From IMG/VR virus record IMGVR_UViG_3300034116_000182, positions 1-56,547 of that record: a stretch of DNA of 56,547 bases, one strand, 5' to 3'. The position numbers and the translations under genes are program-made. Positions 24,402-42,736 of the stretch are shown here, one piece after another; positions within the stretch are counted from its first letter, which is position 1, and each line of letters starts with the position of its first letter. Below the pieces are notes generated by a model. It saw only the letters and a list, made by a program, of their open reading frames with translations, was not told the origin of the DNA and did not search any database. Source of the stretch: a virus (Duplodnaviria > Caudoviricetes).

Positions 24402-24749
24402 ATGGCACAAGGTGCAAAGACAGGCGGCAGGGTAGCTGGAACGCCCAACAAGGCGTCAACGGAAGCTAGACAGGCCATAGCCTCATTTGTTGATGGAAAC
24501 GCTCACAGGCTCACTGGATGGCTCGACAAGGTCGCTGAGGGTGTGCAAGATGCCGACGGTGCATACGTGGTGCCACCGAACCCAGCGAAGGCGTTTGACA
24601 TGTTCCAGTCGGTGGTGGAGTACCACATACCCAAACTGGCGCGTCAAGAGCATGTGGGTGACGACAACAAGCCATTGGTGATGGAGCACAACGTGAACGT
24701 GTTCGGTGAGTTGCTCAAGTCAATCAAGATGTCACGCCAAGCCGAATGA
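24402..24749 (+). CDS. terS: Terminase small subunit
   Basis: KTGGR..GTPNK N-terminus, PKLAR.E..G; directly upstream of TerL. Confidence 0.8.
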   Translation: MAQGAKTGGRVAGTPNKASTEARQAIASFVDGNAHRLTGWLDKVAEGVQDADGAYVVPPNPAKAFDMFQSVVEYHIPKLARQEHVGDDNKPLVMEHNVNVFGELLKSIKMSRQAE

Positions 24750-26185
24750 GCGCATTGGATGCAGTTCTGGCTGATCCCAGTATCCAGAAGGAATATGAAA
24801 CCCTGCATCCCATTGAGCAGGCGGTTATCAATTGGCAATTGAAGTGGCTAGGACAACAGGCGCATAAGCACCAGATCGAGCCGTCGGGTGACTGGTGGAA
24901 CATATGGTTGATGCTGGCAGGGCGTGGAGCAGGTAAGACACGCGCCAGCGCCGAGACGCTAGCAAGCTGGGCATGGGAGCAACCCAACACACGATGGCTT
25001 GTCTCAGCCCCTACGAGTGGCGACTTGAAGGGTACATGCTTCGAGGGTGACTCAGGGCTTATATCCGTCATACCGCCTGCACTGATAGCCAAGTACAACT
25101 CCAGCCTACATGAGATCCACCTGATCAATGGGAGCTTCATCAAGGGCATCCCAGCGTCGGAGCCAGAGCGCTTCAGGGGGCCGCAGTTCCACGGTGGCTG
25201 GCTGGACGAGCTAGCGGCATGGGAGTACCTGCGCGAGTCGTGGGACATGATCCAGTTCGGTATCCGACTAGGCCAGCGCACCAAGCTCATATGCTCGACG
25301 ACGCCTAAGCCTAAGGACGTGGTGATGGAGTTGATCGAGCGTGAGGGTGACGACGTGGTGATCACACGCGCCAGCACGTACAGCAACATGAAGAATCTGG
25401 CGCCATCGTTCCAAAAGCAGATCCTGCAGTACGAGGGTACGAACCTAGGTCGGCAAGAAATCCATGCTGAGATCATCGACCCTGAAGAGGGCGGCATCGT
25501 GCGTCGTGACTGGTTCAAGCTATGGCCTGCTCAGAAGCCTTTTCCCAAGCTTGAGTACATTATCCAGTCCTATGACTGCGCAACGTCTGACAAGACCGTT
25601 AACGACCCTACAGGGTGCATTACGCTGGGTGCCTTCAAGCCATTGGACGGCGGCATGTGTGTGATGGTGTTGGACTGCTGGCAGGAGCACCTACAGTATC
25701 CCGACCTGCGCCCCAAGGTGATCGACGAGTATGAGACGGTGTACGGTGAGGGACGAGCGAAGAAGCTGGTGGACTTGATCCTCGTGGAGGACAAGAGCGC
25801 TGGTATATCCCTGATCCAAGACTTGCAACGTGCTCACCTGCCCGTGCATGCGTACAACCCCGGCAGGGCGGACAAGATCCAGCGCCTGAGCATCGTGGCT
25901 AACATCATCAAGGCAGGGCGTGTCTGGGTGCCTGAGAGCACCGTCAAGAAAGGATTTGTGAGGGACTGGGCTGAAGGCATGGTCAGCCAGATCTGCTCAT
26001 TCCCTGAGGGTACGGTGCATGACGAGTTCGTTGACTGCATCTCACAGGGATTACGGTACATGCGTGACGCTGGATGGATCAGCATCGATGCACCACCACG
26101 CGAGGATCTGGACGAGGACGACATCTTTGATGCTGACGAGTTCAACCAACGTGCGCGTGGAAGAGAGAACCCATATGCAGTTTGA
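24746..26185 (+). CDS. terL: Terminase large subunit
   Basis: AGRGAGKT Walker A, WLDE Walker B, STTP coupling motif, SYD / VEDK / HDEFVD nuclease residues. Confidence 0.95.
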   Translation: MSALDAVLADPSIQKEYETLHPIEQAVINWQLKWLGQQAHKHQIEPSGDWWNIWLMLAGRGAGKTRASAETLASWAWEQPNTRWLVSAPTSGDLKGTCFEGDSGLISVIPPALIAKYNSSLHEIHLINGSFIKGIPASEPERFRGPQFHGGWLDELAAWEYLRESWDMIQFGIRLGQRTKLICSTTPKPKDVVMELIEREGDDVVITRASTYSNMKNLAPSFQKQILQYEGTNLGRQEIHAEIIDPEEGGIVRRDWFKLWPAQKPFPKLEYIIQSYDCATSDKTVNDPTGCITLGAFKPLDGGMCVMVLDCWQEHLQYPDLRPKVIDEYETVYGEGRAKKLVDLILVEDKSAGISLIQDLQRAHLPVHAYNPGRADKIQRLSIVANIIKAGRVWVPESTVKKGFVRDWAEGMVSQICSFPEGTVHDEFVDCISQGLRYMRDAGWISIDAPPREDLDEDDIFDADEFNQRARGRENPYAV

Positions 26186-26214
26186 AACTGTAGTTAACTA
26201 CACTTTGAAAAGTG

Positions 26215-26243
26215 TGGACGTGCCATGTTGGTGAAGGCATAAT
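26215..26243 (+). promoter_or_regulatory. Possible internal promoter for the multi-domain gene
   Basis: TGGACG-N17-CATAAT, preceded by the perfect palindrome TGTAGTTAACTACA. Confidence 0.5.
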
Positions 26244-26268
26244 GGGCGGCATTCATGAAGGACATTCC

Positions 26269-29200
26269 ATGATCCCAAGCAAGCCCCCTATGGGCATCAA
26301 TGTAGCGAGCGATACCAAGGCAGGGCTGAGGTACGCTGACATGATTGTCGATGGGCAGAAGACCCTTGAGTCACGCAACAGCGACACACTGCGCCCATAC
26401 GTTGGTAAGCGCGTGGCGATTGTCCGCACTGGTGAAGGCAAGGCTAAGGCTATTGGTGAGGTTACTATCGGTGAGCCGAAGGTGGTGAACCAAAAGCAGT
26501 TTCGTGCGATGGAGGGCGACCACTTAGTCCCCAAGGGATCGAGGTTTGACATCAATACGCCGACCAAGCATTTGTACCCTATGCATGATCCTGTGCGGTA
26601 CGAAGAGGAGCGCGACGTTGGTCACGGTATCGTGTCGCGCAAGGTAATACATAAAGCTAAAGGTGGAGCAGTGAAACCTACAATAGATCAGATGCGCCAA
26701 GCACTGGCAAAGGGTGGCAAGGTCGAGGTACGCCCCACCGTCAAAGATGAGAACTTGATGCGCAAGATCCCTCAGATGGAAGCGGCGGCTAAAAAGGTCG
26801 AAGAGGGCAAGATGAGCCACGAGGCTTACGACAAGGTGGTTGCCAAGCACAAGCCTGTCAAGCCGTATGAGTTCGTACCACAGCCTGCGTCAGACGAGGA
26901 TGCTGACCGTGCATTGATGGAGAACAAGAAACCCCATTGGCGAGGTCACGAAAACTGGCCTTCAGGTCGCAAAGTTGGCTTACGGTTGGACATCCCTGCA
27001 TACGAGAATCACGGCGTTTGGGTTAACTCCATCCATGATGAAGAAGGTAAAGGCGACGACAAGCGCAACACATCGTATGGTTCAGTGTCGTCGGTAAAGA
27101 ACGCCACGTTTGATGCTGGCCCAAGCAAAGCGATTAAGGTTGCCACTGGTGAGCAGAACAAGGCACCGTTTGCACGTATCAAGGGTGAGCTTCACCATAT
27201 GAGCGAAGACGAGGCAGTCGAGCACATGCAGAAGAACCTGAACCACAAAGACTACATTCAAGTGGGCATGGATCCTAGGCGTCATGGCTACTTCTATGAC
27301 CGTAAGACGATGAAGCCTGTAACGCATGCCAAGCACGTTGTGCAGATTGGCCCATTGGTGCTGGCGCATAAGCCTACCTATGGTGAGCGTGAGACGTATG
27401 CCAAGGGCGGCAAAGTGCAACCAACTCAACATGAAATGCGCCAAGCACTATTGCGTAAGGCAAGCGGTGGAGTTGTGCGCATGGCTGGTGGTGGCATCCT
27501 TCAGGACGTCATTAAGAAACCCGATGCCTCAAAGCAATTAAAGGGAGTCGTATTGTCTGGTGCAAGCTGGCTGGCTGGTGATCAGAACACTAAGCTTGCT
27601 AATCAAGCCTTTGGTGAAGACGTTACGAACACAGCGGTAGGTGGGTACAAGACAGCAGATGTGCTGAACCAACTGAACGTATTTGAGAGGGATGGAGGCA
27701 CCTTCGCCCCCGGCACCACGGTGGTGTTGGACATCGGTGCTAACGACATTGCCACTGGTGTAGATCCGTCGATCACACGCGCCAACTTAGATGAGATTGT
27801 CTCTAGGCTTGGTGAAAGCGGCGTCAACATTATTATGTCTGCCCAACCGTTTGCTAACTCGTTTCAAGAAGCCATTGACAACCCCAACTTGGTGATGAAC
27901 GAGATGTACAGCGACATTGCGGCAAACAACCCGAACGTAACAGTCGTTGATGCAATGTCGGGGTTTTTGAATCAAAAGAACCTGATGGATGAGTCTGGTT
28001 TCCACTTAAACAATGAGCAGTCAAAAGCAGATTACATCAACAAGTTTGCGGATGCATACAAGGCTAGAAACCAAACAACTCCAGATGTTGTAGACACCAC
28101 GTCTACTAACACGAATCCTATTGGTGGATTGACAGCAACCACGCCAGCAGACAATGTGCAAAACAACACGAATCAGTTGGCAGACGCGACTAAACTAGTG
28201 TCACCATTGGAGCAAGCTTCATTGGTTGAGCAGACACCAACTCCACCAGAGCCGATACAGCAGGCGTCCTACAAAATGCCTGAGTACGACACAGAGTCAA
28301 ACCGCTCATTCAAGAATTTTGATGACTACGGCGGTGGCATGATGGAGCGAGCTAAAGGCGGTGAAGTAAGAAGCCCATTTGACTACGAGAACCCATCACA
28401 CGTTGAAAACGTCGCTGGTATTGCCGCCAAGCATAGGGACTTCAATCAGATTCCTGATGCGGCTAAACACTTGGCTGGCGTGTTATCGCAGGGCAGTTAC
28501 AAGTTTGTTGAAGACCCACGCATTCAGAGTGCCATCAAGCAAGCAGGTCACAACGGCTACTACATAAGTGGCAAAGATGGCAAGCAACAAATTATTCGCA
28601 AAGCCGAAGGAGGCGCTGTGTTACCTATTGAACAAGTCAAAGCTCAGATGATGAACCGATTCAAAGGTCTGAATCAACTCCAATCCATTGGCGCCGAGGA
28701 AGCCCCCAGCATGGGCATTAAAGCGTATGTACCTACCACTGGTAGCCCAGACGCTGGTCGCATGCCTGTAGGCGGTATTGACACGTCTCAAGGGGATCTG
28801 CCTGTTGGTGGGATCGACATGAGCAAGCAACAGCCCGGTCACCAATTGATGCCCAGCCAACCGGGTCAGCAACCCGGCATGGGGCAGGTGCCTATGGCTG
28901 ACCAACCCCCTATGGATAGCATGCCTGTAAAGGGCGCAATGCAACCACAGCAAGCTGGAAGCAACATCTTGAGCATGACCCCCCAAGGACAAGCGATGGC
29001 GGCTCTAAAGCCCCAAGGTTTGGCTAAGGGCGGTAGCGCTAAGTCAGTTGACGAGATGAAAGCTGAGTTGGCGGCTAAGAAAAAGGCACAAGCGGCACCA
29101 GCGGCAAGCGACGACGATGATGATGAAGAAGAGGTGAAAGCGCCGTCCAAACGCATTTTGGTTAAAGCTGAAGGCGCTGGCGGAGTGACTGGTATTGTAA

Positions 29201-30984
29201 TCCCGCACCATATGCTTCATGGTCGCAGTTGGATCAACAAAAAAGGCAAGAAAGTTGTGGTGCCGGGACTTAAAGACATCAACAAAGCACGTGCTGAAGT
29301 TTATGGTTCTGAGAACCGTGATCCCTTGAGCATTGGTCAAACGGGCAAGATCCATAAAGAAACACTTGAGGATCACTTTGCCAAGCCACTTAAAGACCAG
29401 TTAGCCTCAGAGAAGGAAGCGACTGCACGTTTGCGAGCCGCTAAACACTTGGGTTCCAAAAACAACACGTTGGACGAGTCTGAGAAGCTGGATACTGTGC
29501 GTCATGAGACGGACGAAGAGGGTCGTACCCACGTTGGATTTGCTTCTAAGGGTGTGGCAGGTCATGCACTGTACACATCTGGACACGGCAAGAATGAAAA
29601 GCATCACATCATCAACACTTGCCCCGGTCAAACAGAGGGCTGTGGTGGCGGTAAAGACTCAAAGGGTGTGATCGACACTAGCCGTGGTACCTGCTTTGCA
29701 CCCAATGCCGAATCACAGTACGTGCATGCGGCTGTTCGTCGTGCAACACACGAACAAGCCAAGCACGACCCCAAGATGACACGCGATTGGATTTTGGCTC
29801 ATACAGGATCAATGCGTGATGCGGCAAACAAAGCAGACAAAAGTAATCAACGACTTTTGTTCCGTCCTAATGTTGTGGACGAGACTGACGTGTCTTCACG
29901 CCACGTGATCCGTCACTTGAATGAACAACGTAAAGTAAACGACAAGCCACCAATTATTGCTAACTCATACGGCAAGACAAATGAGTTGCATGACCCTGAG
30001 AATGGTTACCATGTGACGCATTCGAACGTAGGCCCAAAGGTCAAGAAGGGTCAAGAGATCAGCGAGAATATTGCTCGCGACAAAGCCCGTGTTCGCAACA
30101 CCATAATGGCGTCTGACAACAAGGGTGACTTTAAAAACGAACAGGGTCACAAGACGCCACCAAAGGGTTCGTACATGGTGACTGACGTTAAGCGTGGCTC
30201 TGAAATGTCTAAGAACATGGAGAAGCACATCACTCACGCCAAGTACTGGACGACTGGACGTGAACAGTATGAGTTGACACCGCAAGAGAAAGAAGAAGGC
30301 GCAGAAGGACATTTTGGTGGCAACGGCAAGCCTTCAAGCGAAGACGAGGCTCACTATGGTCATAAAACCATTGATGGAAAGCGTTATGACTACCAGAAGC
30401 AACACATCTTGCACCCACGCTTGGTGAACGTTCCTATTCGTAAAAAGAACAAAAAGACTGGTGAAATGGAAACTAAGGATCACATGATCCCTACAGATTC
30501 ACGTTTCAAAGACACTGAGTTCTTGCCCAAAAATAAATTTAAAACTAAAAATGGCAAAGACGCTGGTCACATCTTGATGACCACGCCTACTGAGTCCACA
30601 AGTAACATTGGTCACGAGACTTCATTCACTCACAATGTAAGCCCCAAGCACATCGAGCATGCAATTGAGAACAAAGGCGAGTACGAAATTGACAAACCAG
30701 AAGATCAAATTAAAGCTTCTAACAAAGAGTACCGCGCACCACAATCAATTAAGTTTTATGCTGGAGGCGGTCAAGTTGGTGGTCGTCACATTGGCTTTAG
30801 CGATGATGATTTCCATGCGTTCCCTGAGCAAAACGTGGTTGCACAACGTCACTTAGCTATGCGTGGACATGATCATGAACCAGTTGCAAAACACGGTTTG
30901 TCGAATACCAAACGCAAAGTTACAATGAACAAAGACATGGACACCATGTTGTTAGAACTGACACGTAACAAGAAAGCCAAATGA
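26269..30984 (+). CDS. Multi-domain (polyvalent) protein, about 1571 aa: ASCH-like, unknown, SGNH hydrolase, unknown, GP88-like domains joined by AxGGxV linkers
   Basis: YADMIVDGQKTLESR (ASCH); GAS/G/GAND/GFH blocks (SGNH); CPGQTEGC...CFA...FRPN...NSYGK (GP88-like); AAGGA RBS before ATG 26269. Confidence 0.75.
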   Translation: MIPSKPPMGINVASDTKAGLRYADMIVDGQKTLESRNSDTLRPYVGKRVAIVRTGEGKAKAIGEVTIGEPKVVNQKQFRAMEGDHLVPKGSRFDINTPTKHLYPMHDPVRYEEERDVGHGIVSRKVIHKAKGGAVKPTIDQMRQALAKGGKVEVRPTVKDENLMRKIPQMEAAAKKVEEGKMSHEAYDKVVAKHKPVKPYEFVPQPASDEDADRALMENKKPHWRGHENWPSGRKVGLRLDIPAYENHGVWVNSIHDEEGKGDDKRNTSYGSVSSVKNATFDAGPSKAIKVATGEQNKAPFARIKGELHHMSEDEAVEHMQKNLNHKDYIQVGMDPRRHGYFYDRKTMKPVTHAKHVVQIGPLVLAHKPTYGERETYAKGGKVQPTQHEMRQALLRKASGGVVRMAGGGILQDVIKKPDASKQLKGVVLSGASWLAGDQNTKLANQAFGEDVTNTAVGGYKTADVLNQLNVFERDGGTFAPGTTVVLDIGANDIATGVDPSITRANLDEIVSRLGESGVNIIMSAQPFANSFQEAIDNPNLVMNEMYSDIAANNPNVTVVDAMSGFLNQKNLMDESGFHLNNEQSKADYINKFADAYKARNQTTPDVVDTTSTNTNPIGGLTATTPADNVQNNTNQLADATKLVSPLEQASLVEQTPTPPEPIQQASYKMPEYDTESNRSFKNFDDYGGGMMERAKGGEVRSPFDYENPSHVENVAGIAAKHRDFNQIPDAAKHLAGVLSQGSYKFVEDPRIQSAIKQAGHNGYYISGKDGKQQIIRKAEGGAVLPIEQVKAQMMNRFKGLNQLQSIGAEEAPSMGIKAYVPTTGSPDAGRMPVGGIDTSQGDLPVGGIDMSKQQPGHQLMPSQPGQQPGMGQVPMADQPPMDSMPVKGAMQPQQAGSNILSMTPQGQAMAALKPQGLAKGGSAKSVDEMKAELAAKKKAQAAPAASDDDDDEEEVKAPSKRILVKAEGAGGVTGIVIPHHMLHGRSWINKKGKKVVVPGLKDINKARAEVYGSENRDPLSIGQTGKIHKETLEDHFAKPLKDQLASEKEATARLRAAKHLGSKNNTLDESEKLDTVRHETDEEGRTHVGFASKGVAGHALYTSGHGKNEKHHIINTCPGQTEGCGGGKDSKGVIDTSRGTCFAPNAESQYVHAAVRRATHEQAKHDPKMTRDWILAHTGSMRDAANKADKSNQRLLFRPNVVDETDVSSRHVIRHLNEQRKVNDKPPIIANSYGKTNELHDPENGYHVTHSNVGPKVKKGQEISENIARDKARVRNTIMASDNKGDFKNEQGHKTPPKGSYMVTDVKRGSEMSKNMEKHITHAKYWTTGREQYELTPQEKEEGAEGHFGGNGKPSSEDEAHYGHKTIDGKRYDYQKQHILHPRLVNVPIRKKNKKTGEMETKDHMIPTDSRFKDTEFLPKNKFKTKNGKDAGHILMTTPTESTSNIGHETSFTHNVSPKHIEHAIENKGEYEIDKPEDQIKASNKEYRAPQSIKFYAGGGQVGGRHIGFSDDDFHAFPEQNVVAQRHLAMRGHDHEPVAKHGLSNTKRKVTMNKDMDTMLLELTRNKKAK

Positions 30985-33500
30985 TGGACGAACTTGACCC
31001 AACACAAGATCCCATGATCACTGAGAATGAAGACGGCAGTGCTGATGTAGATCTGCCTGATGATCTGTCTGAGATCGAGGAGATGCCTGATGGATCGGCT
31101 GTTGTCACGATGCCTGACGGTGGCCCTGAAGAAAATCCAGACTTCTACTCCAACATGGCGGAGTCATACGACGAATATGATCTGTCTAAGTTGGCTATGC
31201 GTTATACCGACTTGCTCAAAACTGACAAGTCAGCGCGTGAGCAGAGGGATAAGCAGTACGAAGAGGGTATCAAGCGCACGGGTATGGGCAATGATGCGCC
31301 CGGCGGCGCCACCTTCATGGGTGCCAGCAAGGTAGTTCACCCTGCTATGGCTGAGGGCTGTGTTGACTTTGCCGCCAAAGCTATTAAAGAGATGTTCCCA
31401 CCTGACGGCCCTGTTCGCACTAAGGTGCTGGGCAAGATGGACGACATTAAATCTGAGAAGGCAGAGCGCAAACGCGACTACCTAAATTGGCAGATCACTG
31501 AGCAGATCGAGGAGTTCAGGGATGAGCAAGAGCAGTTGCTGACGCAGTTGCCATTGGGTGGCTCACAGTACTTCAAAATTTGGTTTGACGAGCAGAAGAA
31601 ACGTCCCTGCGTGGAGTTTGTTCCAATTGACAGGATCATTTTGCCGTTTGCCGCGAGTAACTTCTACACAGCACAACGTGCCGCTGAGGTTCATGAGATC
31701 ACCGCATGGGAATTCAATCGTCGAGTAGCCAGCGGTATGTACCGCAACATCGACATGATCCCCAACACGATGGAGCCTGAAATGTCGAAGGCTCAGAAGG
31801 CGACCAATAAGATTGAAGGTAAGAAGTTTGAAGACAACGACGATGGTTTGCGTAACGTCTACCACATCTACACTTACTTGGAGTTAGAAGAAGACAAGTA
31901 CACCAAGGGTGAGATGGCTCCTTACATCATAATGATTGACGAGTTGGACAACGAAGTCATTGGTCTGTACCGTAACTGGGAAGAGCAAGACGAAACGATG
32001 ACCAAGCTTGATTGGATTGTGGAGTTCAAGTTCATTCCTTGGAGGGGTGCATATGCGATTGGATTACCTCATCTTATTGGCGGTCTGTCTGCCGCTCTTA
32101 CAGGCTCTTTACGCGCTTTATTGGACTCTGCCCATATCAATAATGCCGCAACCATGCTCAAGCTCAAGGGCGCAAAGATGTCTGGTCAGTCACAACAGGT
32201 GGATGTGACGCAGATTGTGGAGATTGAGGGAGCGCCGGGCGTCCAAGACATTCGCCAGATCGCCATGCCCATGCCGTTTAACCCACCTTCAGAGGTCTTA
32301 TTTAGGCTCCTAGGCTGGTTAGATACAGCGGCGAAGGGGGTAGTGTCCACCTCAGAGGAAAAAATTGCTGACGTCAACGCTAATGCCCCTGTAGGCACCA
32401 CTCAAGCATTGATTGAGCAGGGAGCGGCGGTGTTCTCATCGATCCACGCACGTTTGCATGAGTCACAAGCGCGTGTATTGAAGATCTTGTGCCGGCTAAA
32501 CCGTTGGCACTTTGACGAGATGCGCAAGTCTGACGTGGTTGCAGATCTGGAGATCAGCCGCGAAGACTTCCAAAAGAACACGGACGTAATTCCTGTATCT
32601 GATCCGCATATCTTCTCTGAGACACAGCGTATGGCTCAGATGCAAGCTGTGTTGTCATTAGCAGATAAACACCCTGAGCAGTTCAACATGAACAAGGTGT
32701 TGGCTCGCTCGCTCAAGCAGATGAAGATACCTAACATCAATGAATTGATGAAGGATGTCCCATCGCCTGAACAGCGTACTTCTGCTGACGAGAATGCGGC
32801 TATGTTGATTGGTCAGCCAGCGTATGCGTACATGCAACAGGATCACATTGCTCACATTCAGGATCACTTGCAATTTGCGATGAACCCATTCTTGGGCCAG
32901 TCACCGTTTGCAGATCCCGGCTACCTGAACAACCTGATCGAGCACATTAAGCAACACATGACCTTGTGGTACTTGAACCGCAGTAACGGTTACGTGGCTC
33001 AGTCTCGCAACGGTAAGCCCGTGGACAACTACGATGATCCAATGCTCACAGGCACCATTGACCAGCTTTACACGGCTGTTGGTGCTCACGTTGGCATGGA
33101 TACAAAGGAAGTGTTTGAGCAGTTTGCTCCAGCGTTCCAAGCGCTTATTCAGCAAGCACAGAAGCGCAAAGATGCACAGAAGCAAGTGCTACCGCCAGAT
33201 GCACAAGTTGTCAAAGACACAAACATGGCAGAGACTCAGCGCAAGACGCAAGAGGATCAAGCTCGTTTGCAACTCGACACTCAAAAATTGCAGATGGATA
33301 TGCAAAAGCACCTCGAAGACAACAAGACAAAGATTGCCATCGAGAATGCAAAGCTGACACATCAAACGATTACGGATATTGCAACTACGCAAATGCCCGA
33401 AACCGCGCCTACAATGGGCGCACCAATGGCAGAGATGCCGCAACAAGGTATGCCAGAAGGCATGCCACAACCTCAAGGAGTTCCAAATGTCAACATCTGA
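30981..33500 (+). CDS. Portal protein
   Basis: 839 aa after TerL; HP.MAE.CV.F.A.A..E.FP..GPVRTKV, LPL.GS...K, APVGTT.ALIEQG motifs. Confidence 0.9.
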   Translation: MMDELDPTQDPMITENEDGSADVDLPDDLSEIEEMPDGSAVVTMPDGGPEENPDFYSNMAESYDEYDLSKLAMRYTDLLKTDKSAREQRDKQYEEGIKRTGMGNDAPGGATFMGASKVVHPAMAEGCVDFAAKAIKEMFPPDGPVRTKVLGKMDDIKSEKAERKRDYLNWQITEQIEEFRDEQEQLLTQLPLGGSQYFKIWFDEQKKRPCVEFVPIDRIILPFAASNFYTAQRAAEVHEITAWEFNRRVASGMYRNIDMIPNTMEPEMSKAQKATNKIEGKKFEDNDDGLRNVYHIYTYLELEEDKYTKGEMAPYIIMIDELDNEVIGLYRNWEEQDETMTKLDWIVEFKFIPWRGAYAIGLPHLIGGLSAALTGSLRALLDSAHINNAATMLKLKGAKMSGQSQQVDVTQIVEIEGAPGVQDIRQIAMPMPFNPPSEVLFRLLGWLDTAAKGVVSTSEEKIADVNANAPVGTTQALIEQGAAVFSSIHARLHESQARVLKILCRLNRWHFDEMRKSDVVADLEISREDFQKNTDVIPVSDPHIFSETQRMAQMQAVLSLADKHPEQFNMNKVLARSLKQMKIPNINELMKDVPSPEQRTSADENAAMLIGQPAYAYMQQDHIAHIQDHLQFAMNPFLGQSPFADPGYLNNLIEHIKQHMTLWYLNRSNGYVAQSRNGKPVDNYDDPMLTGTIDQLYTAVGAHVGMDTKEVFEQFAPAFQALIQQAQKRKDAQKQVLPPDAQVVKDTNMAETQRKTQEDQARLQLDTQKLQMDMQKHLEDNKTKIAIENAKLTHQTITDIATTQMPETAPTMGAPMAEMPQQGMPEGMPQPQGVPNVNI

Positions 33501-33633
33501 TCAAGAACAAAAGAGCGTGTTGGTTCCCCAGCACAAGCGCTTGGCTATGGGCGAGAAGCTCTCAGGCCAAAGCATGCAACCTAAGGGTAACGGTAAGCCC
33601 CAAGGTGGTTTGTCTCAAGCTAAGAAAAAATGA
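33487..33633 (+). CDS. Small basic protein, 48 aa
   Basis: AAGGAG RBS; VPQHKRLAMG motif. Confidence 0.65.
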   Translation: MSTSDQEQKSVLVPQHKRLAMGEKLSGQSMQPKGNGKPQGGLSQAKKK

Positions 33634-33812
33634 TTGAACAATTGATCCATGTGATCAAGATTCGACAAGCAGAATTGGCGCAGTCCCTTGCCTTGGGGAA
33701 TGCGTTCAACTGGGAGTCATACCAACGGATGGTCGGTGAGTATCAGGGGTTGAAGTACACCCTTGATTCACTGGACAACATCCTGCAAGAGCAAGAAGGT
33801 AGAGAAGATTAA
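33630..33812 (+). CDS. Small conserved head-module protein, 60 aa
   Basis: W.SYQRMVG.YQGL motif typical between portal and GroES in such phages. Confidence 0.75.
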   Translation: MIEQLIHVIKIRQAELAQSLALGNAFNWESYQRMVGEYQGLKYTLDSLDNILQEQEGRED

Positions 33813-33892
33813 CCCCAATCCTTGGGGCTAAAGGCCGCGCTGAAAAGTGCTTTAACGATGCACCTGAAATATGGTGATTTTTAGGAGTGAGT

Positions 33893-34351
33893 ATGAGTGA
33901 GAAAGAAAAGATCCCGACGATTTCGGGAAGTGAAGGCGTACCCGATCAACAGGAGCTAAAGTGGGCTTTCCCCGACGTGAGTCCGGGTCAAAAGCCGTTC
34001 GGTGGTCGCGTAGTTGTACAGCTACGACGCATCAAAAAGACAACTGCCAGCAAGATCATTTTGGTTGCCGAAACCAAAGAGACTGAGAAGTGGCAGAACA
34101 TGATTGGTCGAGTGGTGGAGATTGGCCCTCTGGCCTTTAAGAACCGCGAGACTATGGAGTCATGGCCCGAAGGTAGCTGGGCAAGCGTAGGCGACTACGT
34201 GCGAGTACCTAAATGGGGCGGTGATCGTTGGGAGCGCGAGGTTCCTAACGAAGAGGGTAACGAAGACCCTGTTCTTTTTATGACCATCAACGACCACGAA
34301 TTGATTGCGAAAGTCACAGACGATCCGCTTTCATTCAAGGCTTATGTTTAA
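33893..34351 (+). CDS. groES: Phage co-chaperonin GroES (Cpn10)
   Basis: PFGGRVVV...TASKIIL...GRVVEIGP...VGDYV..PKWGG...IND.ELIAKV. Confidence 0.85.
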   Translation: MSEKEKIPTISGSEGVPDQQELKWAFPDVSPGQKPFGGRVVVQLRRIKKTTASKIILVAETKETEKWQNMIGRVVEIGPLAFKNRETMESWPEGSWASVGDYVRVPKWGGDRWEREVPNEEGNEDPVLFMTINDHELIAKVTDDPLSFKAYV

Positions 34352-34363
34352 TTGGAGAATTTC

Positions 34364-35335
34364 ATGAGTACTGAAGACAAAAAAGAAGTAGATTTGAACA
34401 TTGAAGAGACGAAAGACGGCTCTGCAGTGATTGATCTGCCTGAAAGTATGCTTTCTTCTGAAGATGGAGACGAAATTGCCGAGAGAAGTACTGGCGGTGA
34501 CGTATCTGCAGAAGAAGATGACCATCCTGATGACTCTGATGCTGTAAGAGCGGCAAAAAGAGCACGTCGCAGGTCTAAAAAAGACCTGATTCGCAAGACG
34601 AATGAGGAAAAAGACGCTCGATTGCAACAACTGCAACGAGAAAACGAAGAATTCAAGCGTCGTTTGTCTAATGTGGAGCGTGAGACTAAGAATAGTCAGA
34701 TCGCACGTATTGACAAACACCTAGAAGACCAGAAAGTGCGCTTGGAATACGCCAAGATGAAGCTGTCCGAGGCTGTACAAGCTGGTGACGGTGACGCGAT
34801 GGTGGAAGCGCAGACGATGTGGAACGAAGCGCAAGCCGCAGTGGGCGAATTTGCTCGTGCAAAGCAATCTGCAGAGCGTGAAGCACAAAATCGCAACGAC
34901 ACACCTGTTGTTGACCCTACAGTGCAACGCAATGCCGCTGACTGGATGCGTCGTAATTCATGGTATCGCCCAGATACCTCAGACCGTGACTCGCAAGTCG
35001 CCAAAAAGGTTGACGAACTGCTAGTTACAGAAGGAATGAACCCCTCTGATCCAGATTATTGGGATGAATTAGATAATCGCTTGCAAAAAGCATTACCACA
35101 CCGCTACAATGACAACAACGACAGTAATTCTGCTGTTAGAAAACCGAGGAACGTTGTGGGTAGTTCAGGTCGTGAAGCTTCAGCCGCATTTGGTGGTAAC
35201 AACCGCACACAATTCGTGCTTTCTCCCGAACGGGTCAAAGCTATGAAGGAAGTGGGCGCTTGGGACAACCCCACGCGCAAGAAAGCAATGATTGAAAACT
35301 TCATCAAATATGACCGTGCAAACGGCACCCGTTAA
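34364..35335 (+). CDS. Capsid scaffolding protein
   Basis: Acidic N-terminus, long coiled coil, W..RN.W, position before the capsid genes. Confidence 0.75.
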   Translation: MSTEDKKEVDLNIEETKDGSAVIDLPESMLSSEDGDEIAERSTGGDVSAEEDDHPDDSDAVRAAKRARRRSKKDLIRKTNEEKDARLQQLQRENEEFKRRLSNVERETKNSQIARIDKHLEDQKVRLEYAKMKLSEAVQAGDGDAMVEAQTMWNEAQAAVGEFARAKQSAEREAQNRNDTPVVDPTVQRNAADWMRRNSWYRPDTSDRDSQVAKKVDELLVTEGMNPSDPDYWDELDNRLQKALPHRYNDNNDSNSAVRKPRNVVGSSGREASAAFGGNNRTQFVLSPERVKAMKEVGAWDNPTRKKAMIENFIKYDRANGTR

Positions 35336-35355
35336 CTAATACTTGGAAAACTATC

Positions 35356-35904
35356 ATGACTGAATCACGTCTCAAAAAATCTCTCAACGCTGGTGGACGC
35401 AAGGATCGCGGAAGCGAGGATGCAACCCGCACAGCACCTGAGGATAAGTTCATTTCTACGCAGGAACGTCGCAAGATGTGGAGCGAGGAGTGGACGCAAT
35501 CAGCCTTGCCAAAACTGCCCAACATGGATGGGTGGCACCTTTGCTGGCTTTCGACAACCAACAGCTACGACTCCATCGATAAGCGGATTCGCCTAGGGTA
35601 CGTTCCAGTTAAATCTGAAGAGTTACCGGGGTATGAAGACTATCGCGTGAAGGCGGGAGAACATGTTGGGTATATCTCTTGTAACGAAATGTTACTGTTC
35701 AAACTACCTATGGATGTATTTCAAGAGATCATGATGCATCATCATCACGACCAACCTCGTGAAGAAGCTGAGAAGATTCGTGTTCAATTGGAAAGCTTGC
35801 AAGGTCAACGTGACAGCAACGGTAAGCGACTTGTGGATGTCGAGGGTGAAGGTATTGGTAATTTTGATCAACAGCCAAGCAAAACGCCCGTATTTTCGGG
35901 CTAA
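35356..35904 (+). CDS. Conserved head-module protein, 182 aa
   Basis: GWHLCW.ST...KRIRLGY.PV..EE; context. Confidence 0.7.
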   Translation: MTESRLKKSLNAGGRKDRGSEDATRTAPEDKFISTQERRKMWSEEWTQSALPKLPNMDGWHLCWLSTTNSYDSIDKRIRLGYVPVKSEELPGYEDYRVKAGEHVGYISCNEMLLFKLPMDVFQEIMMHHHHDQPREEAEKIRVQLESLQGQRDSNGKRLVDVEGEGIGNFDQQPSKTPVFSG

Positions 35905-35919
35905 CCAAAGGAGTCTATT

Positions 35920-36516
35920 ATGAGTTCAACCTCTGCTCCGTTCGGCTTGCGCCCCGCGTTCCACCCTTCTGGTCTGGATCGCGCACAAGCGCTTGCGAAT
36001 GGTATTACGTCTGGATATTCCAGCAACATCTTGAAAGGTCAACCCGTTCAATACGGTACGACCGCTAACTCTGGTACTCTCGGTACTATCATCGCCGCAG
36101 GCACAACTGGCGCTATCGCTGGTGCGTTTGCTGGTGTTGAGTGGACTGACACTACTGGACGTCGTCGCGTGAGCAACTACTGGCCTGCATCTACTGCATA
36201 CACCACTGGTTCTTGCGTAGCTTACTTCTACAACGATCAAAACATCGTTTATGAAATCCAAGCTGACGGTTCTATGGCTCAAACCACAATCGGTAATGAG
36301 TTCAACCTAAACAACTTGACTGCTGGCTCGACCACTACTGGTCTGTCACAAGCAACCTTGAACTCCGCTTCTGCGGCTGGCAATGGTTCGCAAGCCCAAG
36401 TTCGTGTGGTTGACCTCGCACCCTACGTTGACAATGCATGGGGTGATTCATACACCATCGTTCGTGTCGTTATCGCTAACTCGCAATTCTTCGGTGCTGT
36501 CACCGCGATTGCTTAA
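35920..36516 (+). CDS. Capsid decoration/minor capsid protein
   Basis: APFGLRP N-terminus, G.F.GVE.TD..G, beta-rich; just before the major capsid gene. Confidence 0.7.
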   Translation: MSSTSAPFGLRPAFHPSGLDRAQALANGITSGYSSNILKGQPVQYGTTANSGTLGTIIAAGTTGAIAGAFAGVEWTDTTGRRRVSNYWPASTAYTTGSCVAYFYNDQNIVYEIQADGSMAQTTIGNEFNLNNLTAGSTTTGLSQATLNSASAAGNGSQAQVRVVDLAPYVDNAWGDSYTIVRVVIANSQFFGAVTAIA

Positions 36517-36535
36517 TTTAAAGGGAGCATAAATT

Positions 36536-37450
36536 ATGGCCGCCCCAATGCGCAGTACGGACTTTAGAAGCATCGTTGAACCTATTCTCAACGAGTGCTT
36601 CGATGGAGTCTATGACCAACGAGCCGACGAATGGAGCCGTGTGTTCCGTGAAGAAGATGGCATTCCCCGTAACTACCACGAAGAACCCGTCTTGTACGGT
36701 TTCGGCGCGGCACCTCAGTTGCCTGACGGCACTCCTGTGACGTACCAACAAGGTGGTGTGTTGTTCCTCAAACGCTATGTGTACAAAGTGTATGGCCTTG
36801 CCTTCGCTCTGACCAAAGTGTTGGTGGAAGACGGTGATCACATCCGTATCGGTCAAGTTTATGCACGTCACTTGGCACAGTCTTTGGTGGAAACCAAAGA
36901 GTTGTTGTCAGCTAACGTGTTGAACACAGCGTTCAGCTCAAGCTACCCCGGTGGCGACGGCGTGTCCCTGACCAATACTGCTCACCCAATTGTGAACGGT
37001 ACATTCAGCAACCAATTGGCTACATCTGCCAACTTGTCCCAGACTTCTTTGGAACAAATGTTGATCCAGATCCGTCAAGCAGTTGACAACAACGGCAAGA
37101 AGATTCGTTTGGTTCCACGTCAATTGATCGTGGCTCCCGGCAACATCTTCCAAGCTGAAGTTCTCTTGAAATCTGTCTTGCGTACAGGTAACGCAAACAA
37201 CGACATCAACCCTGTCAAGTCCATCGGTTTGTTGGACGAAGGCGCGGCTGTTCTGTCACGTTTGACTAGCCCTACAGCATGGTGGGTTCAGACCGACGCT
37301 CCTGAGGGCTTCAAGCTCTTGATGCGTCGTCGTTTGGAGAAAACTATGGAAGGTGACTTCGAGACTGACTCTATGCGCTACAAAGCGACAGAGCGTTACG
37401 ACGTTGGCTTCACTGACCCTCGTGCCGCCTACGGTACAGCAGGCGTCTAA
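36536..37450 (+). CDS. Major capsid protein (HK97 fold, Mu gpT-like)
   Basis: GFG.AP...G..V.Y, GGDGV.L....HP, P..LIV.P, ME.DFET...RYKA.ERY..G..DPR..YG. Confidence 0.92.
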   Translation: MAAPMRSTDFRSIVEPILNECFDGVYDQRADEWSRVFREEDGIPRNYHEEPVLYGFGAAPQLPDGTPVTYQQGGVLFLKRYVYKVYGLAFALTKVLVEDGDHIRIGQVYARHLAQSLVETKELLSANVLNTAFSSSYPGGDGVSLTNTAHPIVNGTFSNQLATSANLSQTSLEQMLIQIRQAVDNNGKKIRLVPRQLIVAPGNIFQAEVLLKSVLRTGNANNDINPVKSIGLLDEGAAVLSRLTSPTAWWVQTDAPEGFKLLMRRRLEKTMEGDFETDSMRYKATERYDVGFTDPRAAYGTAGV

Positions 37451-37453
37451 GCC

Positions 37454-37487
37454 AAAGGGGTGGAATATACTCCACCCCTTTTTTTTA
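37454..37487 (+). terminator. Terminator after the major capsid gene
   Basis: AAAGGGGTGGA-ATATAC-TCCACCCCTTT followed by a T-tract. Confidence 0.9.
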
Positions 37488-37518
37488 ATCTGATCAAGCT
37501 TTTCAAGGAGAAGATCAA

Positions 37519-38496
37519 ATGCCACAATTTTCCGACGATTTATTTCTAGGTTCCGCTGTTACCTATCAAGGTGCGGACGCCTACCCTGCTGTTGCAACTT
37601 TTACTGGTTCAATTTCTACCACTACACTTACAGTCACCGCGATGCTTTCTGGTGACAATATTGCTGTTGGTATGTTTATTGACAGTTCAACTTCACTTAC
37701 CAATGGAACTTACATTACCGCTTTTGGTACAGGTTCTGGCGGTGTAGGAACTTACACCGTAAGTGCCTCACAAACTGTAGCAAGCTCCACAATTGTCGGC
37801 TCTGGTAATGCTTTGTTGCAAAACCCATCCACAATGACTGTAGGTGTTGGCCCATTGGGTCGCGTCTATATTTGGGACGCTGTACCACAGGCAAAACTGA
37901 CGACTAACATTGTTGCCGCCGCCATTACAACTGCTACCACGCTCACGCTTGCCGCAGGTGCTGGTGTTACATCAACAACCATTGTTGGCGGTACAACAGG
38001 CTTGCAACTTGATTGCCCTCGTGCCGTGTGTACAACCACTGGTGCTGGTTCTCCAACTTCTGTCAACATTACTGTTTCTGGTTACGACTACTACGGTCAA
38101 GCCATGAGCGAGGTAATTGCAACAGGAACAGTGGCATCAACAACTGTTAATGGTAAAAAAGCCTTCTACCAGATCTCTAGTGTCACTGCTTCTGGCGGAA
38201 GTGTGGTAACTGTTGCGGTAGGTACAACCGACATCTTGGGCGCACCATTGCGTATCATTGATAGAGGCTACGTTACCCGCGCTGGTTGGGACAATACTTT
38301 GGCTGAAGATGCTGGAACTATGACTGTTGCCGCTACCGCCACAGCAACCACAACCACTGGTGATGTGAGGGGTACTTATTTGCCCTCGTCTGCTTGTGAC
38401 GGTATCAAGCGTCTTGTAATGGGAATAGCCCTGCCAGCAATTGCGGCAGGCCCGAATGCAACTCGTGTTGGCGCGTTTGGCGTCACACAAGCATAA
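37519..38496 (+). CDS. Virion structural protein, Thr/Gly-rich beta protein, 325 aa
   Basis: [14 protein letters not shown]...GTYTVS module; DCPR...V.GYDYYGQ.MSE; position after capsid. Confidence 0.7.
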
Positions 38497-38506
38497 GGAG
38501 AGCAAC

Positions 38507-39646
38507 ATGGGACAATTTAAACCAATGGTCAAAATGATGACCACTGAGCCTTCAGTTATTCTGAAGCTAAAGAAAGGCGGCAAAGTAGAGCACAAGATGG
38601 ACGGTGGGTATATGCCCATGCAGTCAACTATGCCTGCTCAAGCAATGCCAGCAATGCCTGCTCGTGGTGGTTTAGCTTCTGCGGCTAGCCCCATGAAACC
38701 GTCTATGGCGGCTCGTCGCAAGGCGATGATGGCAAAGCCTGCTATGAGTCCTACCCTGATGAAAAAAGGTGGTAAGACTGACAAGCATGAAGACGCCGCT
38801 CAAGATCGTGCAATGATCAAAAAGGCTATGGCTGGTAAGAAGTTTGCAACTGGTGGCGTTGTCAACGGTCAAGGTGGCTTCAAGGATGGTGGCATCATCA
38901 AGTCAACCAAGGGCGAGACAAAGATGGTAACTTCCAAAGTTGACCACTCACCTGCCAAAACTGGCGGTGTGAAGTTGGGCAATGGCGGTGGTTATGCTAC
39001 TGGTGGCGTTGCTAAGGCTAATGGTGGTGGTTACAAGATGGGTGGTTCCACAAAAAAAGCCTACGCGACGGGGGGAACTGTTGATACAGGCAAACCCGTC
39101 GCGATGCCCAAAAAGCCAGTATCAAAGCCAATAGCAAACAGTTTGCAGTCTGGAACGTTTGCTAAAGGCGGTAAGGTCGAGAAAGCGGAAAAACCAAACC
39201 TCCGCCTTATCAAGACTTACACTGGCCCTAAAGGACACGTAGCAAAAGTTTACAAGGATCGTGACTGGCAAGAGTACAGAACTAAGTTCTATACTCCTGA
39301 CGGTAAGTATCTAACTGAAGGCGACTCACACACTGATGACGCTGAAGATGCTCACTCAACAGCCAAGAACCAAGTAGAACACTCTCGCTATAAGCATGGT
39401 GGCACAGCGAAACGCTATAACACTGGAAGCACCGTAGACGCATCAAAAGGCGCATACGATAAATCTATTGGGCCAAGCGAGAGCGATATGGACATGGCGA
39501 AAGCTATCCGTAGCGTTCCACGCAAGCTGTTTGAAGGTGCGAAGAGCATGATGGGTATGACCCCCAAGCCTGCTGGTAGTGTTACAAAGACTGAGAAATC
39601 AGTTACTGTGACTCCTGCTGGCAAAAAGCGTGGTGGTGGTTGTTAA
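38507..39646 (+). CDS. Basic protein with about 10 GG motifs and a probable -1 frameshift
   Basis: AAGGAG RBS; LKKGGKV, FATGGVV, YATGGTV, FAKGGKV and others; ends KKRGGGC*. Confidence 0.8.
   Translation: MGQFKPMVKMMTTEPSVILKLKKGGKVEHKMDGGYMPMQSTMPAQAMPAMPARGGLASAASPMKPSMAARRKAMMAKPAMSPTLMKKGGKTDKHEDAAQDRAMIKKAMAGKKFATGGVVNGQGGFKDGGIIKSTKGETKMVTSKVDHSPAKTGGVKLGNGGGYATGGVAKANGGGYKMGGSTKKAYATGGTVDTGKPVAMPKKPVSKPIANSLQSGTFAKGGKVEKAEKPNLRLIKTYTGPKGHVAKVYKDRDWQEYRTKFYTPDGKYLTEGDSHTDDAEDAHSTAKNQVEHSRYKHGGTAKRYNTGSTVDASKGAYDKSIGPSESDMDMAKAIRSVPRKLFEGAKSMMGMTPKPAGSVTKTEKSVTVTPAGKKRGGGC
39052..39103 (+). other. Candidate programmed -1 ribosomal frameshift signal
   Basis: In-frame A_AAA_AAA, 5-nt spacer, perfect 9-bp stem CGCGACGGG/CCCGTCGCG; the -1 frame stops at 39082-39084. 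Confidence 0.7.
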
Positions 39647-39651
39647 GTAAG

Positions 39652-39677
39652 GTGGGGGCTTCGGCTCCCACTTTTTA
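39652..39677 (+). terminator. Rho-independent terminator
   Basis: GTGGGGGC-TTCG-GCTCCCAC-TTTTT. Confidence 0.9.
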
Positions 39678-39690
39678 ATTGGAGAGATTT

Positions 39691-40470
39691 ATGGGAACTT
39701 ATTCTTCTGCAACGCGCCAAGGGGCGTATGAGCCATTTGAACTGCAAGTAGCCCGTGGGCAAGTTGACGGTCACAAAGCCTTATTTAAATTCGGCATCAA
39801 CGGTGATGTCGGCACATCTGTTGAAACAGTTTGGGCGCAAGGTGGTACATATGTGTATCCTACCGCCGCAACTGTTATGAAAATCTCTAGCTCAAGTGCA
39901 GACGATACTTCTGCTGGAACTGGCGCAAGAACAATTGCTATTTTTGGTCTTGATGCAAATTACAACGAGATTAGCGAGTCGGTGCTTCTAGATGGGCAGA
40001 CAGCAGTCAACACTGGAAACAGTTACTTGCGGATTTCTAGGATGTATGTAACCACAGCAGGTTCGGGTGCAACTGCCGTAGGAACTATCTACGCTGGCAC
40101 TGGCACTGTTACTTCTGGTGTTCCTGCAACCGTTTACGGCATGATTGCTATTGGTGCAAACCAAACGCAGATGGCGTTTTGGACTGTACCTGCTGGGTAC
40201 ACCTTGTATTTGATGGGAGTTTTTTACACATCTGGAAACGCAACCGCAAATTCTTGGACAAACTTTCAATTGAATCAGCGTCCGTTGGGCGGAGTTTTTA
40301 GACAACAAACTTCTGCTAGGGTTGCTGGCAGTGGTGACTTTATTCTTGACCTGCACACCCCTCTTGTTTTTGCTGAAAAGACAGACCTTGAAATTAGGGC
40401 AATTGCTTCAGCAGGAACTTCAAACGTATCTGCCGAGTTTGAAGGCATCTACATTCAGAACCCTGACTAA
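39691..40470 (+). CDS. Probable virion structural protein, 259 aa
   Basis: KFG.N.DV...ETVW..GG.Y.YP...GTGART..I.GLD.NY beta-rich family; GGAG RBS. Confidence 0.65.
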   Translation: MGTYSSATRQGAYEPFELQVARGQVDGHKALFKFGINGDVGTSVETVWAQGGTYVYPTAATVMKISSSSADDTSAGTGARTIAIFGLDANYNEISESVLLDGQTAVNTGNSYLRISRMYVTTAGSGATAVGTIYAGTGTVTSGVPATVYGMIAIGANQTQMAFWTVPAGYTLYLMGVFYTSGNATANSWTNFQLNQRPLGGVFRQQTSARVAGSGDFILDLHTPLVFAEKTDLEIRAIASAGTSNVSAEFEGIYIQNPD

Positions 40471-40472
40471 TC

Positions 40473-40883
40473 ATGTCTGCCAAAGAAAAAGCCATGAAAA
40501 AAGCTAACGGTGGCTCTACAAGCCCGTATGACTACGATAGTGACGTTGACTACTACAGTGCAATTGGTCGCCTCAAAGAAGAAGGCGATGAGTCGCAAGA
40601 AGCACCTCGCATTAGCTCTGCTGTTTTAAACAAGCAAAAGACTATGCGCAGAAAGAATGCGGCGGACAGTGCAATGTCACTGGCGGCTAAACGTGCTGGT
40701 GATAAAGACGCTGACAAAAAAGTTCAAGATCGTTGGTCGCGTCGTGATCAATCTGAAAAATTAAAGTTCAAAGCCAAAACATCAAAAGCACCTGTTGCTG
40801 AGTCTGCTCGTAAAGAGTGGTCTGAAAAGATCGGTAAGGGCAAACCCGCTCCATTTAAAACAGGTGGCAGTTCCTGCTGGTAA
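40473..40883 (+). CDS. Basic hypothetical protein with GG motifs at both ends
   Basis: KKANGGST ... FKTGGSSCW*. Confidence 0.7.
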   Translation: MSAKEKAMKKANGGSTSPYDYDSDVDYYSAIGRLKEEGDESQEAPRISSAVLNKQKTMRRKNAADSAMSLAAKRAGDKDADKKVQDRWSRRDQSEKLKFKAKTSKAPVAESARKEWSEKIGKGKPAPFKTGGSSCW

Positions 40884-40886
40884 ATC

Positions 40887-41063
40887 ATGAAACAAGGTCT
40901 ATATGAAAATATTCATCGAAAACGTGAAAGAATCGCTAAAGGGTCTGGCGAGAAGATGCGCCGAGTTGGTAGCGAAGGTGCGCCAACGTCTAAAGCCTTC
41001 AGGCAATCCGCCAGAACAGCCAAAATGAAGGATGGCGGCAAGATGACAAAGTCTTGCTGGTGA
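40887..41063 (+). CDS. Small basic protein, 58 aa (GLY.NIH.KR.RI..GSGEKMR family)
   Basis: Read by hand; ends MKDGGKMTKSCW*. Confidence 0.75.
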   Translation: MKQGLYENIHRKRERIAKGSGEKMRRVGSEGAPTSKAFRQSARTAKMKDGGKMTKSCW

Positions 41064-41065
41064 TC

Positions 41066-41314: not shown

Positions 41315-41323
41315 GGAAATAAC

Positions 41324-42735: not shown

Positions 42736-42736
42736 T

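Follow-up and report, generated by a model that had tools for sequence, protein, structure and literature searches.

Introduction

Polyvalent proteins of phages are thought to be weapons that arrive with the phage DNA, and several known systems offer points of comparison. Head proteins of the MuF / SPP1 gp7 type are encoded next to the portal gene and combine a conserved anchor with a variable toxin end. In polymorphic toxins, junction motifs such as VENN in CdiA and PxxxxDPxGL in Rhs mark the border of the cassette. The internal proteins of T4 carry a capsid-targeting sequence, the inner-body proteins of giant phages are cut by the prohead protease, and in these phages the entry of proteins that are not structural into the head is controlled by short amphipathic peptides at the N terminus and by defined cut sites. 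Phage polyvalent proteins themselves were treated by Iyer, Burroughs, Anand, de Souza and Aravind (2017), who hold them likely to be packaged in the capsid, discuss their processing by fused metallopeptidases, and report that processing of P1 DdrB precedes its packaging and that polyvalent proteins may be subject to processing (PMC5512222). Here we analyze a freshwater phage genome, the IMG/VR record IMGVR_UViG_3300034116_000182 (56,547 nucleotides (nt), at full length hereafter the window), in which one giant protein is encoded between terL and the portal gene.

The first-pass annotation of this locus had described a polyprotein-like gene built of interchangeable modules, which are bounded by GG motifs and joined by a standard linker for docking or cleavage. 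Our analysis confirms the observation and supports the interpretation in part. The placement of the gene is corroborated by the matches of its neighbors to Terminase_6N and phrog_1216. The product had been likened to polyvalent proteins such as DarA and DarB of P1, and it is a polyvalent protein of the Iyer/Aravind type, since its relatives carry ART-PolyVal, LPD23, PcfJ, GNAT and ParB domains. Proteins of this class hold 2-15 distinct domains, mostly of effector type, and come from phages with portal-terminase packaging, with the gene among virion genes; the window protein contains ASCH, GDSL and GP88-like domains plus two further folded or conserved modules, and its gene lies between terL and portal. 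Pfam detected none of the signature domains of the class, such as ART-PolyVal, the LPD domains and MPTase-PolyVal, in the window protein itself; ART-PolyVal and LPD23 are found in relatives' proteins at the orthologous position. None of the P1 DarA/DarB domains was found in the window protein, and the likeness to these is one of analogy only.

The connector

The protein consists, in order, of an ASCH module, an alpha/beta domain, a predicted SGNH/GDSL hydrolase, a module of 80 amino acids (aa), a Q/P/M-rich core and a GP88-like domain of 530 aa (Table 1). The module boundaries proposed earlier agree with the Pfam matches (ASCH, Lipase_GDSL_2), with phrog_586 and with the domains predicted by AlphaFold2. 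Between the modules stands a connector of two parts. The first, [K/M/L/Y]-A-[K/E/Q/R]-G-G-x-V-x-(P), shows no globular fold in the models, and the second, which is often present, is an amphipathic helix of 10-13 aa, P-[S/T]-x-x-Q-M-[R/K]-x-[A/E]-L. The window protein has six copies of the strict motif [AS][KERQ]GG, against a mean of 0.47 after shuffling, and none of 20,000 shuffles reached six. The four linker strings quoted in the first-pass annotation, namely AKGGAVKPTIDQMRQAL (aa 149-165), AKGGKVQPTQHEMRQAL (aa 397-413), AEGGAVLPIEQVKAQM (aa 798-813) and AKGGSAKSVDEMKAEL (aa 938-953), and the terminal DMDTMLLEL (aa 1576-1584) are all five present where it had placed them. Further junctions are AKGG at aa 166-169 and 714-717, ASGG at aa 417-420, and AGGG at aa 424-427 and 1516-1519.

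AlphaFold2 modeling covered three connectors between domains, and the predicted domains do not span them. The GG motifs at aa 149-152, 166-169 and 397-400 are predicted to sit in stretches between folded domains where the predicted local distance difference test (pLDDT) falls below 50, with short helices at the QMRQAL parts. In the model of connector 1 this low confidence surrounds both GG motifs and the helix covers aa 158-166; in that of connector 2 it extends over aa 394-406, followed by a helix at aa 406-418.

Searches with the portal and with the protein retrieved about 100 IMG/VR loci and the GenBank metagenomic phage MW202545. From the terL-portal intervals of the loci, 119 open reading frames (ORFs) of at least 150 aa gave 99 non-identical proteins of 176-2669 aa, which together hold 272 strict motifs. 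A position matrix built from 233 unique windows around the motif reads [K/M/L/Y]-A-[K/E/Q/R]-G-G-x-V-x-P, where K, E, Q and R account for 45, 31, 13 and 10% of the third position, V for 65% and P for 30% of theirs. A second unit, A-x-G-G-[V/I]-[V/I]-H-K, is often found upstream, and the helix follows in 83 of the 233. The signature of the helix, M[RK]x[AE][LMI], lies at most 16 aa after a GG motif in 95 of 173 cases, in a zone that makes up 5.1% of the family residues. The recurring continuations of the motif are few: the helix, the starts of the ASCH, alpha/beta, FDYENP and other modules, and short peptides such as ..THAHHLEIEERPL and ..APDEWKAEEHVNY.

The synonymous positions of the four motif codons vary, and the two most similar copies of the connector within the gene are 72% identical over 50 nt, with a single identical run of 14 nt. 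Selection is therefore on the peptide, and these comparisons show that the connector is conserved as peptide, not as DNA; a DNA-level repeat was rejected on the same grounds. A degenerate form, [F/Y]-A-[K/E]-G-G followed by a Met-rich helix and then x-E-G-G, stands after the homologous alpha/beta module in gp58 of roseophage CRP-207 and in MW202701, which are 31-32% identical to it and encoded after the portal. The bipartite pattern, back-translated, matched 44 stretches in 2.9 million viral contigs of IMG/VR; all 41 newly numbered loci among them have a terL, portal or core of this clade, and the remaining three had been part of the set before. Prokaryote genomes totaling 596 billion bases gave no match. 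In its strict form the bipartite pattern is thus specific to this freshwater clade.

Two other proteins of the window have stretches of a similar kind. A basic, Met-rich protein of 401 aa, encoded after the capsid gene (38441-39646, + strand; 16 GG dipeptides in an open frame of 405 aa), shares motif vocabulary with the polyvalent protein: it contains the units K-K-G-G-K-V, Y-A-T-G-G-x-V and F-A-K-G-G-K-V-E, with a DMDMAKAI helix towards its end and ..RGGxC at the C terminus. It has tblastn matches in 45 loci, and the first 39 distinct ORFs listed mostly have 13-23 GG each. The second is a low-complexity protein of 1862 aa with long A/N/T/V/S repeats (439-6027, + strand) and with no Pfam or PHROG match. 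Its C-terminal end has Y-A-K-G-G and two motifs, including ..D(D)IPAML.DGDYV.DADAV, which resemble the conserved core of CRP-207 gp58 that is common to HMO-2011-type phages.

One explanation of the motif comes from protein folding. The mobile loop of GroES has G-G, three hydrophobic residues and then P, and the hydrophobic tripeptide contacts GroEL. It is barely conceivable that the connectors mimic this loop and enlist host GroEL in the folding or refolding of each module. K-A-E-G-G-A-V-L-P at aa 796-804 does resemble the loop, and the phage encodes a Cpn10/GroES-like protein of its own (33887-34351). Across the family, however, the residues flanking the conserved V are mostly polar, and the tripeptide that contacts GroEL is therefore absent from most connectors.

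Module exchange among relatives

In relatives the interval between terL and portal measures 2171-7343 nt and holds one to three ORFs. We divided the proteins at each motif; clustering of the resulting segments gave 58 architectures among 59 complete non-identical loci, a count that is inflated by singleton modules labeled per locus. Domain content is thus not fixed in homologs, and, as the idea of interchangeable modules had it, comparison of the terL-portal region reveals relatives that keep the connectors while swapping, deleting, reordering or splitting off domains. The window protein reads ASCH - helix - module 11 - helix - GDSL - module 5 - core - GP88-like. Two relatives whose portals are 99% identical to that of the window have different module sets: L006 reads ASCH - ART-PolyVal - module 7 - GDSL - module 5 - core - GP88-like, and L004 has the window order minus GDSL. 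The ASCH module occurs first, second, third or last, depending on the relative, and ART-PolyVal, LPD23, PcfJ-like, GNAT, ASCH, GDSL and ParB domains are all found in the family. An outlying case is locus L099, where an open frame ahead of the portal (40-8049), 2669 aa long or longer, has the GDSL module alone in common with the window protein, and neither the strict motif nor the core is present in it.

The ends of homology fall on the connector far more often than expected. In protein comparisons, 22.5% of 760 breakpoint clusters lie at most 5 aa from a strict motif, against 3.1% at random; in megablast comparisons of the DNA, 76 of 224 clusters lie at most 15 nt from it, against 3.2% at random. 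L006 matches the window at about 95% DNA identity in two blocks, one reaching to aa 166 and one starting at aa 397, both limits lying at an AKGG; the modules between the blocks are unrelated. Against L004, L009 and L087 the homology is lost at aa 399-400 and picked up again at aa 721-722 or 797. The DNA breakpoints at connector 2 against all four of these loci fall at aa 397-400. Among the relatives, module replacement, deletion, reordering and gene fission are seen to occur at the connector.

Such clustering, along with the 14-nt run shared by two helix-coding copies, might be expected if the connector had no biochemical role and were a recombination scar or a short homology travelling with the cassettes. 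We consider this very unlikely, since the motif residues are fixed while synonymous sites vary freely, the degenerate version is still found after the homologous module in CRP-207 and MW202701 at 31-32% identity, and the motif occurs also in the neighboring virion-module protein (38441-39646).

The gene fissions were examined at 24 ORF-ORF junctions of split loci. Five downstream ORFs open with M-(G)-x-V-x-P-T.. or M-Q-P-T-x-A-Q-M-R.., and two open at the FDYENP module (L016 and L074). On the other side, 16 of the 24 upstream ORFs close with GG-x-V-THAHHLEIEERPL and overlap the next start as ATGA (loci L024-L071). In L032 (2890-2955) the E-E codons read GAGGAG, 8 nt before the next ATG, and the ..THAHHLEIEERPL tail may therefore be conserved in part because it helps the following ORF to be translated. 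In L023 the peptide THAHHLEIEERPL is internal, between two GG motifs. Three further database proteins open with the helix, one of which has the GP88-like domain first and then a core-like stretch (..GVEEAP..). Split genes and helix-first proteins together suggest that continuity of the chain at the connector is not needed.

Function of the connector

The part of the protein that is most widely kept is the core. It comprises the conserved motifs IGAxEAP..K.Y.P, LPVGGIDM..QPGQQLMP and SNILxMTPQGQAM within a Q/P/M-rich stretch, has 171 database matches, and (taken as aa 798-964, including the connector that follows) was found in 72 of the 99 family proteins, that is, in all portal-proximal ORFs but two. 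Of the 27 proteins that lack it, 25 come from upstream ORFs of split genes; the other two are a fragment at a contig end and the L099 protein. The core would anchor the protein in the head. The terL-portal position of the gene is kept in every relative that has both flanks.

The conserved position bears on the idea that the product is a cytoplasmic multi-enzyme, made late in infection and unpackaged, in which the connectors are mere flexible spacers. The ASCH, GDSL and possible iron-sulfur (Fe-S) enzyme modules could indeed act in the producing cell, and packaging is only inferred. However, the position, with its stop/start overlap, is conserved in all relatives with both flanks, relatives carry ART-PolyVal and LPD23 domains of a class of phage proteins that PMC5512222 holds to be likely packaged, and a mere spacer would not keep A-x-G-G-x-V and the helix. 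Overall, we regard this scenario as improbable.

We lean, with some reservation, towards the connector being a standard boundary and hinge with a docking helix, in a packaged polyvalent chain of independently folding modules. The protein would be built into the capsid beside the portal, anchored via its core, and would leave with the DNA. The connector would let each module fold separately and thread through portal and tail, and would permit in-frame exchange of a module with its neighbors undisturbed. The helix may serve as a short docking element and move together with the module that follows it, and chain continuity at the connector would be dispensable. Cutting after GG could take place as well, but no identifiable protease supports it.

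Several points weigh against this proposal. Packaging and entry into the host are deduced from gene position, the start/stop overlap and the domain content of the family. Only about a third of the connectors carry the putative docking helix. Small-residue conservation at A-x-G-G is more like that of a protease site than that of a hinge or docking site. About 60% of the breakpoint clusters are not near the motif, and many of these may mark the limit to which similarity can be detected, not crossovers. Finally, the ASCH region is poorly modeled by AlphaFold2, and all relatives come from metagenomes.

The conservation just mentioned leads to the chief competing explanation, a true polyprotein, in which cleavage after A-x-G-G, by an unrecognized protease of the phage or by one of the host, would take place in the procapsid or following ejection and free separate effectors, many of them helix-first, with the helix as capsid-targeting or docking peptide. 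Small residues are strongly conserved at the would-be P4, P2 and P1 positions, with V at P2', and GG-type sites serve several viral polyprotein proteases. Natural fissions fall exactly between GG-x-V and the helix, which implies that separated products are viable, and the processing of P1 DdrB offers a precedent (PMC5512222). On the other hand, no peptidase family was found in 10 ORFs of the window searched with Pfam and PHROGs, in 33 further ORFs searched with Pfam, or in nine head-module proteins searched with NCBIfam, nor did these scans show a phage-encoded prohead protease, although a novel protease is conceivable. No module common to all relatives looks enzymatic, and the core that they share is of low complexity. 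Cleavage at the tandem 8-residue GG units and in the 38441-39646 protein with its 16 GG would moreover yield very small pieces. We therefore see the polyprotein as possible and clearly less probable than not. A shade more tentative still is the notion that the connector is a portable processing-and-targeting signal, at which a protease would cut after GG and each freed effector would keep its N-terminal docking helix.

Our preferred account, a hinged and packaged chain, and its competitors differ in what they would mean. If the connector is only a hinge, this is still a clear case of domain shuffling at defined junctions. If the cleavage-and-targeting account holds, a strategy of viral polyproteins would operate inside the head of a tailed phage, and any domain flanked by cassettes could be loaded and delivered, which would amount to an engineerable cargo system. 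In either event the connector allows effector modules to be delimited and cataloged, many of them here without a known family, and it provides a testable hypothesis for the loading, processing or threading of cargo proteins. It may also supply a design rule for bringing foreign domains into phage heads, as a natural plug-and-play system for effector domains.

Modules and genomic context

The coordinates of the features are given in Table 1, where residues are numbered in the frame that opens with GTG. The first ATG, at 26269, is residue 20 of this frame. The database record P0004, identical (100%) across the searched region, has a length of 1571 aa that fits this start, and the longest contig of the record measures 56,561 bases.

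Table 1. Features of the polyvalent protein gene and its two flanking genes in the window.
Feature	Residues (aa)	Position	Strand	Basis and remarks
terL (context)		24746..26185	+	Terminase_6N (Pfam), E 5e-26; upstream of the ORF
Whole ORF		26212..30984	+	1590 aa from GTG, 1571 aa from ATG; stop overlaps portal ATG
ASCH module	20-148	26269..26655	+	Pfam ASCH (PF04266) at aa 40-109, 22.8 bits vs cut-off 21.2
Connector 1	149-169	26656..26718	+	AKGG, helix, second AKGG
Alpha/beta module (phrog_586-like)	170-396	26719..27399	+	phrog_586 at aa 264-377, E 9e-5
Connector 2	397-429	27400..27498	+	AKGG, helix, ASGG, AGGG
SGNH/GDSL hydrolase module (predicted)	~430-640	27499..28131	+	Lipase_GDSL_2 (PF13472) at aa 461-602, E 8.9e-14
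T/N/P/Q-rich spacer	641-713	28132..28350	+	Sequence reading
AKGG (aa 714-717) and 80-aa module		28351..28602	+	Module opens xV(R)SPFDYENP; module family 5
Core	798-937	28603..29022	+	AEGG, helix, conserved motifs, Q/P/M-rich spacer
Connector	938-964	29023..29103	+	AKGG, helix SAKSVDEMKAEL, Lys run, acidic run
GP88-like domain	979-1512	29146..30747	+	AlphaFold2 fold; BFVD matches; invariant Cys at aa 1137, 1144 and 1161
C-terminal tail	1513-1590	30748..30981	+	AGGG-xVGGRH.GFSDDDFHAFPEQN, final helix DMDTMLLEL
Portal (context)		30981..33500	+	phrog_1216, E 1.1e-24; downstream of the ORF; Q/P/M-rich C-terminal end

In the AlphaFold2 model of aa 20-470, the alpha/beta domain covers about aa 187-391, with pLDDT means of 10-residue blocks mostly at 72-94 and two blocks near 50. 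A protein-atlas search with aa 170-396 gave no usable match, and a search for homologs of aa 170-400 among shorter proteins returned close relatives only (at least 61% identity), without reaching the distant phages. The SGNH/GDSL hydrolase is predicted by a profile match of 52.8 bits against a cut-off of 32.9. Foldseek found no match in the PDB at E<=1e-3 for the N-terminal (aa 20-470) or the C-terminal (aa 965-1590) model.

The C-terminal model has a mean pLDDT of 81. It is folded over the whole GP88-like domain, with 10-residue block means mostly at 79-97 and a dip to 66-73 near aa 1135-1175, the site of the three Cys. These (C-x6-C-x16-C, window 29620-29694) are invariant in 36 aligned GP88-like domains, as are several His, Asp and Arg. 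The Pfam profile GP88 (PF17338) scores 20.8 bits in the window protein, below its cut-off of 24.4, and 25.0 bits in L007. Structure searches of BFVD matched predicted GP88-domain phage proteins at E values from 2e-26 to 3e-4; there were ten matches at E<=1e-3, five of them named GP88. Among 1.84 billion proteins the domain is represented in only 89 at E<=1e-3, which include standalone proteins some 650 aa long, and no relative in the PDB was found by sequence. A VIA-align wide comparison gave a best Z of 5.2, under the tool's caution level, and about 19 of the 50 VIA rows carry names that we take to be those of radical-SAM enzymes. The canonical CxxxCxxC of the radical-SAM type is absent from the domain. 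An Fe-S or radical-SAM-like enzyme is thus a lead and no more, and a full-text search of the literature returned no mention of PF17338. In the tail beyond the domain, which is conserved in the consensus of the family alignment, pLDDT lies below 50 apart from a predicted helix at aa 1576-1587.

The stop codon of the ORF and the start of the portal gene overlap as ATGA. The portal protein, at 839 aa, is far longer than its part matched by phrog_1216 (aa 159-627), and its last 80 or so residues (window 33260-33497) are Q/P/M-rich and resemble the core of the polyvalent protein. Past the portal lie a GroES-like gene, a scaffold-like gene (34352-35335), two genes coding for unknown products, a capsid gene (Phage_capsid_4) and an SU10-type adaptor; together these form the head and tail module of a podovirus-like phage, and the window is an essentially complete phage genome. 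The Cpn10/GroES-like protein (154 aa, 33887-34351, + strand, between the portal and scaffold-like genes) matches phrog_3188 at E 1.8e-8 and Pfam Cpn10 at 25.3 bits against a cut-off of 21.1; its NCBIfam GroES matches are weak, and its counterpart in MW202545 is annotated 'chaperonin 10 kd subunit'. In the 33 ORFs of the window outside 24746-44497 and 439-6027, Pfam detected Gly_rich_2 in four ORFs, a GTA-type 3TM holin, a GH108 lysozyme with PG_binding_3, an SU10 adaptor and a ResIII/DEAD helicase, and no integrase or peptidase.

Comparison with known systems

With the head proteins of the MuF / SPP1 gp7 type, the window protein shares a portal-adjacent gene, a conserved anchor combined with variable effector parts and a presumed delivery with the DNA. 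It differs in that the gene lies upstream of the portal and that several variable modules stand on both sides of the core, instead of a single C-terminal toxin. Pfam gave no Phage_Mu_F match at E<=0.1 in the window protein, which does not belong to that family by this measure. As in polymorphic toxins, a short conserved peptide marks the border where variable cassettes swap. Those toxins, however, have one junction and a single C-terminal toxin with an immunity gene, whereas up to about ten junctions per protein occur here, in the context of phage structural genes and with no immunity genes seen. The short amphipathic helix with which several family ORFs open recalls the internal proteins of T4; by contrast with T4 and the giant phages, the motif is a different one and no prohead protease was detectable here with Pfam, PHROGs or NCBIfam.

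The HMO-2011-type marine phages (CRP-207 with its gp58, CRP-9 and HMO-2011) have genomes of 53-56 kb and a large protein with the alpha/beta module at 31-36% identity and with a short conserved core between variable flanks. Their gene follows the portal, their core motif is ..DDIPA.LSEGEYV.PADVV.., and no match to the strict bipartite pattern turned up beyond the freshwater clade. The accessible text of a paper on HMO-2011-type phages (PMC9038755) and that of a proteomic study of phiRIO-1 (PMC4819975) contain nothing on this protein or connector; the latter describes a podovirus that lacks a protease and shows no clear processing.

The closest likeness is to the polyvalent proteins, which also combine many unrelated effector-type domains in one chain, are encoded near portal and terminase genes and display extensive mosaicism. 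The words 'linker' and 'glycine' do not occur in the main text of PMC5512222, and no standard connector was found there, whereas in the present family a conserved bipartite connector stands between nearly every pair of modules. The fused metallopeptidases proposed there for processing also set the two apart, as no metallopeptidase of that kind was found here. In this polyvalent family the conserved bipartite connector is the place where modules are joined, where they are exchanged and where the chain is split. The clade thus offers a concrete rule for such proteins: modules bear a standard connector, and evolution edits the chain at this point, even between phages with portals that are 99% identical.

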